From a virus (taxonomy: Duplodnaviria > Caudoviricetes), in IMG/VR virus record IMGVR_UViG_2974674860_000001, positions 26,491-90,490 of that record: a DNA stretch of 64,000 bases. The stretch is one strand, 5' to 3'. Below, piece by piece: positions 9,459 through 63,874 of the stretch. The notes below the pieces were generated by a model that saw nothing but the letters and a program-made list of their open reading frames with translations, searched no databases and was not told where the DNA came from. The position numbers and the translations under genes are program-made. Every line of letters starts with the position of its first letter. Within the stretch, counting starts at the first letter, position 1.

Positions 9459-9824
9459 ATGGCATCGACCTACTCCGACGCCCACCGAAACGCATGCGCG
9501 AACGCCATCTGCGCACTCGGCAACCGCATCGGCCTCTACGTCGGCAGCACCCGCGTCGGCACCGTCTACGCCGACACCACGTGGGCCGCGGCCGTGAAGG
9601 TCACCGAGTCGTCCGTCGATAAGGCGCAGAGCACCGGATCGACCGTCACGATCACCGTGCCGGCGGGCACCGTGGCCAATGGAACCGTGATCAACAAGTT
9701 CGGCGTGCACAACGGCTCGACCCTTCTACGCACCGAAGACCTGCCGCTGTCGCTGACTGTCAACGACGGCGGGCAGGCCTTTAGTGTGGACATCACCCCG
9801 ATCTTCAAGTACCGGGGCGAGTAG
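9459..9824 (+). CDS. minor tail protein
   Basis: Last rightward gene of the tail operon; beta-rich. Confidence 0.6.
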   Translation: MASTYSDAHRNACANAICALGNRIGLYVGSTRVGTVYADTTWAAAVKVTESSVDKAQSTGSTVTITVPAGTVANGTVINKFGVHNGSTLLRTEDLPLSLTVNDGGQAFSVDITPIFKYRGE

Positions 9825-10184
9825 CTATTCGGTGGCGGCTTCGTATTGCTCGATGATGTCGTTCGGGATGCGGCCCTTCGGATTCACTTCGATGCCGTTG
9901 GCCACGGCCCAGTCGCGCACATCCTTCATGGTGTAGGCGGCATGGGCTGACCCGTTCGAGCCGTTCGCCGGTGCGCCCGTGGACGGCTGACGTTTGCGGC
10001 CGCCGATCTTCGTGGCGGTCTCGACCAGCTTGACCATCTGCTTCTCGAGTTTCTTGTAGTTCGCGGCGCTGGTCTGCACCTCGTAGTCCACCCCGAGCCA
10101 GCTGACCTGGGCGCGCATCATCGTCTTCTCGTCGAGCAGTTTTCCGTCGATGTCGTCGTAGTACTCGATCTTGTCCCGACGCAT
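9825..10184 (-). CDS. lsr2: Lsr2-like DNA-bridging protein
   Basis: N-terminal DDIDG...GVDYEV dimerisation domain; C-terminal VRDWAVANGIEVNPKGRIP AT-hook-like domain. Confidence 0.9.
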   Translation of the reverse strand: MRRDKIEYYDDIDGKLLDEKTMMRAQVSWLGVDYEVQTSAANYKKLEKQMVKLVETATKIGGRKRQPSTGAPANGSNGSAHAAYTMKDVRDWAVANGIEVNPKGRIPNDIIEQYEAATE

Positions 10185-10230
10185 TTACTCCCTCTCTCTG
10201 TACTACTGCTTGCGGTTCTACTTCATCACA

Positions 10231-10279
10231 CACATGAGCCCCGGCTGGAATCTTCGTTGATCCGGCCGGGGCTCATGTG
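10231..10279 (-). terminator. 15-bp inverted repeat in the lsr2 leader (terminator or attenuator)
   Basis: CACATGAGCCCCGGC (10231-10245) pairs with GCCGGGGCTCATGTG (10265-10279). No strong U tract. Confidence 0.6.
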
Positions 10280-10431
10280 GATGGTGGATGCTTCACTCTG
10301 GTGCTGCCTACTCTGTTCGCGTCCTGCAGATGTTGATCGCGGACGGCCATGGTGGGCCTCGTGTGCGCATCGTCCTCCTTTCGTGTTTGCGAATGTCGGC
10401 GCGGGGTTGATGGTGGGCTTCTGGCGTTCAC
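10273..10431 (-). CDS. mini-ORF 3, MNARSPPSTPRR...KHPPST (52 aa)
   Basis: AAAGGAGAAGCC before GTG 10431. The stop lies inside the 5' arm of the leader hairpin. Confidence 0.5.
   Translation of the reverse strand: MNARSPPSTPRRHSQTRKEDDAHTRPTMAVRDQHLQDANRVGSTRVKHPPST
10308..10370 (-). CDS. mini-ORF 4, MRTRGPPWPSAINICRTRTE
   Basis: AAGGAGGACG directly before ATG 10370; TAG 10308-10310. Confidence 0.55.
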   Translation of the reverse strand: MRTRGPPWPSAINICRTRTE

Positions 10432-10452
10432 GGCTTCTCCTTTCGATCGATG

Positions 10453-10491
10453 TCAAGTTCGGGGCGTGTCTGGTGGGCCTCGGGTGTTCAT
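10453..10491 (-). CDS. mini-ORF 2, MNTRGPPDTPRT
   Basis: AAGGAGAGC directly before ATG 10491; TGA 10453-10455. Confidence 0.6.
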   Translation of the reverse strand: MNTRGPPDTPRT

Positions 10492-10508
10492 GCTCTCCTT
10501 TCTCCTGA

Positions 10509-10550
10509 TCACAATCTGATTGGTGATGGTGGGCCTCTGCTGGAGGTCAT
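10509..10550 (-). CDS. mini-ORF 1, MTSSRGPPSPIRL
   Basis: AAAGGAGAAG directly before ATG 10550; TGA 10509-10511. Confidence 0.6.
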   Translation of the reverse strand: MTSSRGPPSPIRL

Positions 10551-10592
10551 CTTCTCCTTTGTTAGTTTCTGTGTTGCGCGGCTTGTGAGACA

Positions 10593-10621
10593 ACAATAAG
10601 TCACCAATTCGAGACGCGCAA
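10593..10621 (-). promoter_or_regulatory. SigA-like promoter for the mini-ORF/lsr2 transcript
   Basis: TTGCGC (10621-10616), 17-bp spacer, TATTGT (10598-10593). The -35 lies within a copy of the operator-like repeat. Confidence 0.6.
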
Positions 10622-10769
10622 CAGTTGAGTGCACATTTGTCCTCCGTTCATTGGACGTCAACGTGAGAGTTGCCACCCGAATAGCGCCCCTAGCTGCACT
10701 GTTGCGTGTCTCGTACGTGTTAGTGTTACCGTCATCACCGCCCAAAGTTCACCGACGAGAGGAGCCCAC

Positions 10770-11063
10770 TTGAGCAAGAAGCGTGCGATTGAAAACCTCA
10801 GCGACACCGAGGTATACGCAGGATTCGAGGCCGTCCTGACCTGGATGGGGGCCGCCGAGAACGCGGTGCGCATGCTCGACGCATTCGGCGAGAACGCTGC
10901 AGCCGAGCGGGTCGAAGCGGTCCTCGACAAGCTCGACACCGTCATCAACAACGCGATCGACGGAGTACCCAACAGCACCCCGATCAAGGACGACCCGAAT
11001 CAGATCACCCTGATTCAGCCAGCCGACATCGTTCATCTCGCGTCACGGAAGGGCAATCGCTGA
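10770..11063 (+). CDS. hypothetical protein
   Basis: TTG with GAGGAG RBS, downstream of the motif at 10700. Confidence 0.6.
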   Translation: MSKKRAIENLSDTEVYAGFEAVLTWMGAAENAVRMLDAFGENAAAERVEAVLDKLDTVINNAIDGVPNSTPIKDDPNQITLIQPADIVHLASRKGNR

Positions 11064-47813: not shown

Positions 47814-47893
47814 CGCATCCCCAGCCAAGAAGCCTCGACCACGTTGCATGTCTCGAATAGCGTCATTCGTGAGACACGCAACGGAAGGCCGAA

Positions 47894-62449: not shown

Positions 62450-62714
62450 GATTACCTCCGAGTTGTGTTGTGGGGCTTGACATCTTAGGGAAAGCGACCG
62501 AGTGGCACAGATGACCTATCGGTCGCCAACCTAAGTCTGTCAATCAGGTAGTTGTTACGCGCTTTCGCGGTGTGACCAGGAGATTCCTGGCAGTCGCGTG
62601 GCGGATTGCGCCGCCCGTCCGAAGTATTTGGTTCGCACATGACCCATTACTGGCCCATGCACTTGTCGCCGTTTCATGCTGTCAGCTGACCCTAGACCTA
62701 TCAGTTAGTAGCAG

Positions 62715-63874
62715 TGACCTGCGCTTATGGTGCGCAGGCACCTTATCCCAACGGTCTCGTACCCTCGCATAGACTCACGTCCGGATACTGGCCCAACCTG
62801 GCAAGTTGTGGCGACGCTACTCGCAACCGTGGGCACTAAGTGCCCAACGTCTGCGCTCACACGTCGCCCCGATTATTCGCGACCGATTCACTATGGAGTT
62901 CTCAATGTTCACGTAGGCATGACTCACAAGCGTCTGGGAGTGGCGCCATGCCATGCGTCACCAGACGGTAGTGTTTCGTCCCCCGCGTGGTCGCTACTCA
63001 CGTCGCATCGGGTGGTGCTTTGGCCACTACTGGCCGTGCACTGTCGCCGTCCCCCGCTAGGTCTCTGACCTGCGGTTCTAGGCGTCTGGCCTAGGCGGTC
63101 CGCGTGTCGTGCTGGTCATTTTCTCACCTCCCGTCTGGCCCCGGTGGGCCGCTGCTTTCGATGTCACAAAGCTAGCCTACCGTCCGAGACGTGCAAAAAC
63201 GTCCTGACCTGCACGTTCACCACATCGTCGCAGGTCAGCACGTGCAAGAAATTTTCCCTGTGACGTACGTCACACTGCTCTGACCTGCGGTTTTGCCGCC
63301 CAACTGTGGCGCAGGTCACACGTCGCGGGCTCTCGAACGGCGTTCGGTCGGCCATTTTCGGCGTTCTTAGGCCACCCTCATAAGTGCTGCTCAGAGCGTT
63401 TTTAGGGTGCCCTCACTTGCGCCCTGGTCGCCCGACGTGCGTTGCGCGTGCCGAATCGGGCCCATCACCGCAGGTCACGGGCGGTTTTTGGCGCGCCAAC
63501 TAAGCCAAGCCTAACTCGCATCGTCGCAGGTCAGAGCGTTGCGACCCGCTAAGCGGACCGCGACCTCGGCCGGCCGGGGCATCGCCGCAGGTCAGAGCGT
63601 TTTCTAAACGGACCGCGCAGGTCAGAGCGTTGCGCGGCGCTCGCTAGGGCTCTGACCTGCGGTTATGCGCCATCGTCGCAGGTCAGCGCGCCGAGTGTGA
63701 CGTCGGTCACAGCGCCCTCGCGCACCCTGTCTGACCTGCGCAAACGTCGCATCGTCGCACGTCAGAGCGTTGGGGGAGGGCTGCTATATGTCAAAGGGCC
63801 GCCCGACCGAACGCTCGCTCGGTTACCGGCCAGTAGCACCCTACCGAACGCTCGTTCGGTGAGCCTGACCTGCC
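62715..63874. repeat. about 15 copies of CGCAGGTCA[G/C] in both orientations
   Basis: Copies at 62715, 63065, 63204, 63229, 63280, 63310, 63469, 63525, 63586, 63616, 63652, 63677, 63731, 63756 and 63865. Confidence 0.85.

Follow-up and report, generated by a model that had tools for sequence, protein, structure and literature searches.

Tandem RxPP mini-ORFs upstream of lsr2 in a group of Gordonia phages look like a minimal, repeated form of the RAPP-like translation-arrest switch

We analyzed a 64,000-nucleotide (nt) stretch of phage DNA, hereafter the window, taken from the right end of a virus record that is complete at 90,490 bp (IMGVR_UViG_2974674860_000001); because the record encodes a tyrosine integrase, the phage is temperate. 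Upstream of its lsr2 gene, on the minus strand, the window carries an array of small open reading frames (ORFs), each of which reaches the motif R-[G/S]-P-P within a few codons of its start. Judged from the DNA of this phage and its relatives, the array looks like an undescribed form of the RAPP-like translation-arrest switch, one that is both minimal and repeated. With moderate confidence, we favor the reading that the units are translated ribosome-arrest mini-ORFs forming the leader of lsr2, in which a hairpin would couple read-through into the gene to the translation of Pro-Pro. In the literature on RAPP peptides, actinophage Lsr2 and Gordonia phages, we found no description of this element.

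The array spans positions 10273-10560 and consists of four units, each composed of an extended Shine-Dalgarno (SD) sequence, a start codon, two or three further codons and R-[G/S]-P-P (Table 1). The SD, (G)AAAGGAG, stands 3-5 nt ahead of the start codon, which is ATG in units 1, 2 and 4 and GTG in unit 3. Unit 1 has one additional codon ahead of Arg compared with the other units, and this was the only change of length before the motif. All of this agrees with what a sequence-only reading of the same DNA had described, including the alternation of the Arg codons, which read AGA, CGA, AGA and CGA from unit 1 to unit 4, and the presence of a fifth Pro-Pro remnant in frame with unit 3, which was found to begin with GTG. 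Successive CCACCA sequences in the window are 56, 60, 61 and 68 nt apart, and thus the frame of each motif is set by its own nearby start codon alone; neither strand has one long frame that could take in all of the motifs. The unit 3 frame traverses unit 4 in another frame, and its TGA sits inside an arm of the hairpin that follows the array. Likewise, the last codons and the stop of the terminal unit, which lacks Arg, fall in the 5' arm of the hairpin.

Table 1. Positions of the array, of its surroundings and of a second RGPP locus in the window
Feature	Position	Strand	Details	Source
Unit 1	SD 10554-10560; ORF 10509-10550	-	SD AAAGGAG; start ATG; MTSSRGPPSPIRL, stop	sequence, ORF list
Unit 2	SD 10495-10501; ORF 10453-10491	-	SD GAAAGGAG; start ATG; MNTRGPPDTPRT, stop	sequence, ORF list
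Unit 3	SD 10437-10443; ORF 10273-10431	-	SD GAAAGGAG; start GTG; 52 amino acids; begins MNARSPPSTPRR (MNARSPP...), ends VKHPPST, stop	
Unit 4	SD 10375-10381; ORF 10308-10370	-	SD GAAAGGAGG; start ATG; MRTRGPPWPSAINICRTRTE, stop (MRTRGPPW..., 20 amino acids)	
Terminal unit without Arg	10273-10296	-	GTG AAG CAT CCA CCA TCC ACA TGA; weak SD; in frame with unit 3	
Terminator-like hairpin	10224..10286	-	26-nt arms, GC-rich core; -42.2 kcal/mol, z = -7.6	
Promoter-like element	10593..10621	-	TTGCGC (10616-10621), 17 nt, TATTGT (10593-10598)	
Operator-like copies of GAGACRCGCAACA(G), three	10572-10583, 10610-10625, 10698-10713	.	inverted and direct repeats in the divergent control region	
lsr2	9825..10184	-	119 amino acids; Pfam Lsr2 dimerisation E = 4e-11, DNA-binding E = 2e-13	
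Copies of motif TGTTGCGTGTCTCG, examples	10702, 10621, 24448, 26525, 32293, 33567, 34279, 41260, 47287, 47844/47881, 55620, 63196			
Second RGPP locus	63078..63196	-	promoter motif TTGCACGTCTCG (from 63196), SD GGGAGGTGA, then the RGPP ORF	
Second RGPP small ORF	63078-63119	-	MTSTTRGPPRPDA, stop; 13 amino acids; Pro codons CCG CCT	

The pattern AAAGGAG-N8-24-CCCACCA occurred four times in the 64-kb window, each time in the array, against an expectation of 0.01 from shuffling. Three of the six window copies of GAAAGGAG fall in the array, as do five of the 46 copies of CCACCA, which lie on one strand within about 250 nt. The array SDs are unusually long, with 7-9 nt complementary to the 3' end of 16S rRNA. 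A repeat search detected a periodicity of 56-61 nt in the array; Tandem Repeats Finder reported nothing there, because the units are only about 60-70% alike, the spacers are variable and only ~30 of the ~60 nt per unit are conserved. A CRISPR-like repeat-spacer array was considered and rejected, since the units are degenerate (about 64% identity in aligned columns) and of variable length, and Tandem Repeats Finder was empty. The resemblance of GGCCCACCA to a tRNA 3' end led nowhere, as ARAGORN predicted neither tRNA nor tmRNA genes, be it in the window or in the genome.

The records nearest to this phage by Lsr2 and flanking DNA are the Gordonia phages Bantam, SpeedDemon, DatBoi and Mollymur, with Smoothievirus phages more distant; the Lsr2 of the window is 67-69% identical to those of the Bantam-group and Mollymur phages. 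The design was found in five lineages: this phage, the Bantam group (Bantam, SpeedDemon and DatBoi), Mollymur, the trio ClubL, Cucurbita and WilliamBoone, and L206, a 91.5-kb uncultivated relative recovered with an exonuclease alignment. The units of the Bantam group read MFNPRGPP, MNARDPP (from TTG), MNARDPP and a terminal MQEEPP (from GTG) that ends in a stop, and those of Mollymur read MIQPRGPP, MNARSPP, MGARGPP, MNARDPP (from GTG) and a terminal EEPPG before the stop. ClubL, Cucurbita and WilliamBoone have one intact unit, MKAREPP, and a decayed second one. L206 has two closed units, MKAREPPA (8 codons) and MQARDPPSR (9 codons), followed by an SD and TTG ACG CCC GCG CCA CCA GAA AAG ACC TGA (TPAPPEKT). 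The orthologues of window unit 1 are MFNPRGPP in Bantam and MIQPRGPP in Mollymur; window unit 2 aligns with unit 2 of Mollymur and is absent from the Bantam group, and Trp follows Pro-Pro in unit 4 of both the window and Mollymur. In every lineage a co-directional lsr2 operon lies downstream and the hairpin abuts the last unit; in Smoothievirus-type phages, including L206, a membrane-protein gene is placed ahead of lsr2. Elsewhere, intergenic DNA is only about 64% identical among the lineages that share the design. A five-phage alignment from promoter to hairpin showed that the conserved columns are the SD, the start codon and an xGx-xxx-CCA-CCA block in each unit, and that the spacers are free to vary.

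The five lineages together have 14 RxPP units, and their variation speaks for selection that acts at codon level on the first seven codons. Arg is present in 14 of 14 and is written in four ways (AGA in five units, CGA in five, CGG in three and CGC in one). The residue after it is G in six units, D in four, S in two and E in two, with no other residue seen, and it is encoded by GGC, GAC, AGC, TCG or GAG. SD, start and frame are kept in all 14, with ATG, GTG and TTG interchanging, and the distance from start to Arg changes by one codon only. The sequence-only reading had proposed selection at the peptide level, and the comparison supports this: the units behave as translated stall units, in that Arg is kept through four codons and the next residue is restricted to those published as permissive for arrest.

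These data also bear on the alternative that the units are not translated at all. The GGAG...GGCCCACCA blocks might be protein-binding sites in DNA or RNA (iterons, or an array for a regulator or nucleoid protein) or a small-RNA sponge, with the frames incidental. For such sites speak the CCA CCA pair, which is invariant in 18 of 18 cases (14 Arg units and four terminal units), the near-invariance of GCCCACCA at the nucleotide level, the ~60-63 nt spacing of several units, which is near six helical turns, and the location next to a divergent control region with other repeated motifs. However, the Arg codon varies at its third base and between A and C at its first, with A only in AGA, which is the pattern expected of an Arg codon. 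The SD and start persist in 14 of 14 units with interchanging start codons, spacings of 56-69 nt are not helically phased, Rfam matches near the array had noise-level E-values only, with none in the window reaching the gathering level, and RGPP recurs at the right end of the genome with different Pro codons. We regard untranslated sites as quite unlikely. Antisense coding was rejected as well: the motif would be read Val-Gly in Bantam and DatBoi and Gly-Gly in Mollymur, and because the frame differs between Bantam and Mollymur the antisense frames are not conserved coding. The 49-amino-acid "hypothetical protein" annotated antisense to the array as Bantam gene 43 (YP_009287512.1, L003 2216-2365) is, on this comparison, probably a spurious gene call.

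What follows Pro-Pro is dissimilar between relatives in sequence, length and stop position, ranging from 1 to 45 residues; the shortest tails, of 1 and 2 residues, are in L206, and Mollymur reads through into the next unit. This argues against a functional peptide product, and the suggestion of the sequence-only reading that the array could be a source of Pro/Arg-rich peptides found no support. We consider it very unlikely that the products matter, either as peptides resembling proline-rich antimicrobial peptides or as a 94-residue repeat protein. Such a protein is conceivable in Mollymur, where all five units lie in one open, unannotated 94-codon frame (L006 2071-2355), and the CCACCA spacings are multiples of 3 throughout in Bantam (63, 57 and 60) and Mollymur (63, 69, 63 and 60), unlike those in the window; the peptides are also rich in Pro, Arg, Ser and Thr. 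But in the window, the Bantam group and L206 each unit is closed off from the next by a stop, the tails are unrelated, units 3 and 4 of the window are read in different frames, and the 52-residue frame of unit 3 matched no Pfam family and had no homologue in a set of 5.8 billion proteins.

The motif itself is that of a known class of arrest peptides. The RAPP-like peptides comprise ApdA, ApdP, ApcA (RAPG), SecM (RAGP), CruR and seven upstream ORFs of Streptomyces lividans (PMC7897499, PMC10951233, PMC12992588), and they share with the phage units an R-x-P-P core in which Arg does not vary, the position of the small ORF ahead of a co-directional gene, an adjoining RNA hairpin and hosts among the Actinomycetota. 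Mutations introduced into ApdA and ApdP revealed that Arg is irreplaceable, that G at the second position is fully permissive or enhancing, and that S, D, P, E and V are partly permissive (PMC12992588); the residues found in the phages (G, D, S and E) all belong to this permissive set. In many bacterial phyla no tetrapeptide is as strongly under-represented as RGPP, and RDPP and RSPP are depleted too. Arrest of the RAPP type is resistant to EF-P and is seen as a danger for the translation system, and ribosomes of S. lividans arrest on the seven native RAPP/RGPP upstream ORFs.

The phage units differ from these peptides in several respects. Their motif begins at residue 4-5, whereas known members are tens of residues long. 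Most known members have a signal peptide or transmembrane segment; the array ORFs have polar N-termini with no hydrophobic segment, signal peptide or transmembrane segment, and thus force-dependent release cannot take place. The phage array is in tandem (one to four units and an Arg-less terminal unit), encoded by a phage and strict in its use of CCA CCA, and its hairpin has the look of a transcription terminator, not of a structure that masks the SD of the next gene. The closeness of the motif to the start, which the sequence-only reading had raised as a caveat, continues to apply. In structures of stalled ribosomes, order in the ApdP chain extends over R-A-P and three more residues (PMC10951233), and the presumed phage nascent chain, of ~6 residues, has the same length. 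However, the same arrest-peptide papers find a RAPP-like core alone to be insufficient, with 6-12 N-terminal residues contributing; another cited screen found a minimal RxPP to be sufficient. Because the chain fits the ordered part of ApdP, yet the core is called insufficient alone, arrest by the mini-ORFs is plausible but unproven.

The sequence-only reading had also cautioned that there is conservation as DNA or RNA, and this caveat stands, CCA CCA being invariant at the nucleotide level. There is also a translational reason for the invariance, since the tRNA-Pro that reads CCA is limiting and CCA tunes Pro-Pro pausing, and CCC and CCU pairs are slippery (PMC8129111). In Streptomyces venezuelae, a high-GC actinomycete, CCA accounts for 2% of Pro codons (PMC8129111). 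The choice of codon could also serve a sink acting in trans: a stable, short array RNA would trap ribosomes or shed peptidyl-tRNA-Pro(UGG), and so deplete ribosomes, tRNA-Pro(UGG) or Pth in the manner of the lambda bar minigenes. The very strong SDs, the very short ORFs (8-9 codons in L206), the constancy of CCA CCA in spite of a limiting tRNA and of CCA being used less than any other Pro codon by high-GC actinomycetes, the hairpin, which would supply a defined and stable 3' end, and the EF-P-resistant, hazardous nature of RAPP-type arrest would all suit it. Against it, the number of units drifts from four to one in the relatives, which is awkward for a dose-dependent trap; the element always stands directly upstream of the lsr2 operon, which shows no separate promoter; a general ribosome trap would harm the translation of the phage as well; and the RGPP ORF at the right end uses CCG CCT, not CCA. 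We think a sink unlikely. Lambda bar minigenes have two or three codons, the last before the stop being a rare one, and act through drop-off in Pth-limited cells, where they are toxic. They resemble the phage units in being very short and in having a rare codon at which ribosomes could be held or peptidyl-tRNA released, but the phage ORFs are 8-52 codons long and have at least one sense codon after the rare codons. In a variant that we judge distinctly improbable, the array would, in addition to its role in the leader, be a trans-acting weapon, in which RxPP and CCA stalling and the shedding of peptidyl-tRNA-Pro(UGG) drain the CCA-reading tRNA. If this were true, translation of AT-rich, horizontally acquired host genes (defence islands, rival prophages), the kind of DNA whose transcription is silenced by the Lsr2 made from the same transcript, would be choked selectively, and a 6-residue nascent chain would be enough for RAPP-type arrest.

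We next consider the end of the array. A hairpin follows the last unit in every lineage, with folding energies of -38 to -56 kcal/mol and z of -3.5 to -9.6. The window shares its core with Bantam and Mollymur, apart from one pair changed in a compensatory way; the hairpins of ClubL and WilliamBoone differ by one compensated pair, and the stem in L206 is unrelated in sequence. The terminal units lack Arg in all four lineages that keep them, reading KHPP in the window, EEPP in Bantam, EEPP in Mollymur and PAPP in L206, and in all four their Pro-Pro codons and stop are located in or at the 5' arm of the hairpin, the stop being at most 2 nt ahead of it (the TGA of L206 is inside the arm). From the hairpin to the next gene there are 37-45 nt in the window, the Bantam group and L206, without a further copy of the promoter motif; in the window, lsr2 starts 40 nt past the hairpin. 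The earlier proposal that the array is the leader of the lsr2 operon is supported by this, as the stretch from hairpin to lsr2 appeared too short for a further promoter in the window, in the Bantam group and in L206.

At the other end, the sequence-only reading had placed a promoter with 17-bp spacing ahead of the array. The element exists, and its geometry (-35, 17-18 nt, -10) is retained with other letters in every relative (Bantam, Mollymur, ClubL and L206), which makes it a likely promoter for the array; a generic consensus promoter scan, on the other hand, did not flag it. Its -35 sits within one copy of the genome-wide motif TGTTGCGYGTCTCG. The operator-like columns of GAGACRCGCAACA(G) are invariant in the five-phage alignment. 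In the promoter region (10500-10650) the GC content dips to 0.47, compared with about 0.64 for the genome; a comparable dip in other phage clusters was read as a sign of Lsr2 autoregulation (PMC8612146).

The sequences show the anatomy of the array, its conservation and the pattern of selection on codons. From these we infer the following mechanism, including that the units are translated and stall ribosomes, that transcription terminates at the hairpin, in which direction the regulation works and what the upstream Arg units contribute. Transcription would start from the conserved phage promoter motif, and the long SD and start codon would load one ribosome on each unit. After 5-6 codons, once R-x-P occupies the P site and the next Pro has entered the A site, a RAPP-like block of the peptidyl-transferase center would set in, and the rare CCA with its scarce tRNA-Pro(UGG) should prolong the stop. 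Because a stalled ribosome covers its own start region, one ribosome would park on each ~60-nt unit. On the last unit, which has no Arg, the ribosome would only pause at Pro-Pro and then run to the stop in the 5' arm of the hairpin. Judged from footprint geometry, a ribosome at the terminal Pro-Pro would cover only the outer part of the arm, and one at the stop codon would cover the GC core. Thus, a ribosome at the terminal stop would block the hairpin and let RNA polymerase enter lsr2, whereas with the ribosome absent or held at Pro-Pro the hairpin would form. The ribosomes parked upstream could keep others away from the hairpin, protect the leader against Rho and RNases, or set a threshold of free ribosomes. 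In this way, Lsr2 output would report host initiation and Pro-Pro translation, that is, free ribosomes, EF-P and Pro-tRNA(UGG).

Such a mechanism would have features in common with leader-peptide attenuators (trpL, hisL and, in the Salmonella mgtCBR operon, mgtP/mgtL), which also have a short ORF with "difficult" codons before a terminator-like hairpin, and in which the position of the ribosome relative to a hairpin arm would likewise decide read-through. The phages differ from attenuators in that no alternative antiterminator helix was found, in that there are several mini-ORFs and not one leader peptide, and in that the regulatory codons are an arrest motif instead of a run for one amino acid. 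Pro-Pro stalling is known to uncouple translation from transcription, giving more termination at intrinsic terminators and by Rho, and as in Pro-codon leaders and this EF-P-dependent coupling (PMC5021804), Pro-Pro, EF-P and tRNA-Pro would be what is sensed.

A number of observations weigh against the leader switch that we favor. The context ahead of the motif is short, with just fMet and 2-3 residues (3-4 in all) before Arg, so that the N-terminal residues on which known arrest peptides draw are lacking. Known members are released by Sec or YidC pulling on the signal sequence, and a 6-residue chain cannot be pulled. When the whole leader was folded, the terminal hairpin was the sole stable element and no alternative antiterminator structure appeared, nor did the alignment of relatives contain a conserved alternative helix. 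The tails that follow the hairpin are U/G-rich with no clean U-tract. Unit number varies from one to four among the lineages, and the ClubL-type phages have lost the terminal CCA CCA unit. The reading does not account for the presence of several Arg units ahead of the terminal one. To these must be added the open frame of Mollymur and the multiples of 3 in its and Bantam's spacings, as well as the invariance of CCA CCA, which would also fit a constraint on RNA or DNA.

Another alternative is a constitutive, protective leader, in which parked ribosomes would shield a long stretch of unstructured RNA with more C than G from Rho and from 5'-end-dependent RNases and the hairpin is an element for stability or processing. 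The ermC leader, in which a stalled ribosome stabilizes the RNA, and the STAB-SD of Bacillus cryIIIA are precedents, and they share with the array the extended SD GAAAGGAG(G) near the 5' end of the transcript. The array RNA is A-rich, U-poor, higher in C than in G and weakly folded apart from the terminal hairpin, one ribosome per ~60 nt would cover most of the leader, and both RGPP loci of this genome are at the 5' ends of long leaders. This reading does not, however, account for the Arg-less last unit with its stop in the hairpin arm in four lineages, and simple SD-only stabilizers need neither an ORF nor an arrest motif: STAB-SD needs no ORF, and erm leaders need antibiotic. To our knowledge, none of these stabilizers and none of the bar minigenes has RxPP or forms arrays. 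A purely protective role seems improbable to us. The start-associated sequences of Cluster K mycobacteriophages, which are conserved SD-containing blocks repeated beside the starts of ordinary genes scattered genome-wide, have in common with the array the repeated SD-bearing blocks beside starts; the array differs in being made of tandem mini-ORFs with an arrest motif.

A genome-wide scan for further units found one more, an RGPP small ORF at the right end of the genome, which heads a ~630-nt untranslated leader of the leftward genes of the right arm. Bantam (L184 about 1740-1835) and DatBoi (L198 about 1585-1675) have a 31-residue ORF at the equivalent place, which ends in S/Q-RGPPT before the stop. 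Its Arg codon differs synonymously between the two phages, CGC and CGG being used in the right-end ORFs, and the ORFs of the window, Bantam and DatBoi all continue with GGA CCG CCT and not CCA. Because other Pro codons are used here, the RGPP peptide motif recurs independently of the CCCACCA string. With 26 residues ahead of Arg, the Bantam/DatBoi ORF has the 6-12 residues of N-terminal context, and its RGPP lies two residues from the C-terminus, as in the known RAPP-like class. The right-end RGPP ORF is absent from SpeedDemon, no RGPP-coding pattern was seen in the last 2.7 kb of Mollymur, and a blast of the window's right-end DNA against the relatives gave no match. Positions 88000-90669 of Mollymur (L189) carry no annotated feature at all. 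The ~630 noncoding nt (62450-63080) between the right-end mini-ORF and the first leftward gene contain blocks conserved with Bantam, for example ...TACTTCGGACGGGCGGCG..., and matched no Rfam family; upstream of that region (63200-63500) there are many repeats of GACCTGCG / CGCAGGTCA.

The element seems to be confined to this group of phages. When the intergenic region was compared by blastn with 50,697 phage records, nothing matched, and a single unit used as a DNA query matched the Bantam group only. Lsr2 alone or the exonuclease alone found no relatives in IMG/VR; the exonuclease alignment as query found Bantam, Cucurbita and one new relative, L206. A triple-CCCACCA pattern hit more than 100 unrelated loci, and a single-unit pattern hit 26 loci, of which Bantam alone was genuine; a match inside Bantam gene 90 was a false positive in the wrong frame. 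The two-unit pattern found only Bantam among viral contigs, three chance matches in Joint Genome Institute (JGI) metagenomes, and four unrelated contigs of metagenome-assembled genomes in 596 Gb of prokaryote genomes, which were taken as chance from their taxonomy and the expected rate, uninspected. Overall, the pattern scans of IMG/VR, the prokaryote genomes and the JGI metagenomes gave no array beyond this Gordonia phage group. In the unrelated Streptomyces phage Success, within the 320-nt region before its lsr2 (L188 about 1205-1250), the sequence GTG AAC ACA GCA CGA ... CGG TCC CCA CCG was observed, which reads VNTARRTGRARSPP from GTG; another frame is also open there, and the likeness may be due to chance.

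As for the surroundings, on the other side of the array lies a divergent plus-strand gene that starts near 10772, followed by the gene for the large subunit of exonuclease VII. The motif TGTTGCGTGTCTCG has 17 copies in the 90-kb genome, mostly immediately before genes, and is probably a phage-specific promoter or operator. Its copies often have TAGACT- or TAGAGT-like hexamers 8-14 nt later, and the two at 47844/47881 face each other. Just past the lsr2 stop, in the 3' end of the last plus-strand ORF of the tail region, there is a palindromic hairpin (9727-9790), detected through weak symmetric matches to microRNA models on both strands, which is probably a terminator for converging transcripts.

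Should ribosomes stall on the units, these would rank as the shortest arrest elements of the RAPP type in nature, with a nascent chain of ~6 residues. Within the literature searched, neither phages nor tandem arrangements would have yielded such an element before, and the units would also bear on how much N-terminal context the RxPP core requires. The system is small, conserved and experimentally tractable in Gordonia terrae or Mycobacterium smegmatis. Lsr2 is a xenogeneic silencer linked to the control of lysogeny, and if the reading is true, a temperate actinophage would read the translation capacity of its host, in the form of free ribosomes, EF-P and tRNA-Pro(UGG), directly into Lsr2.

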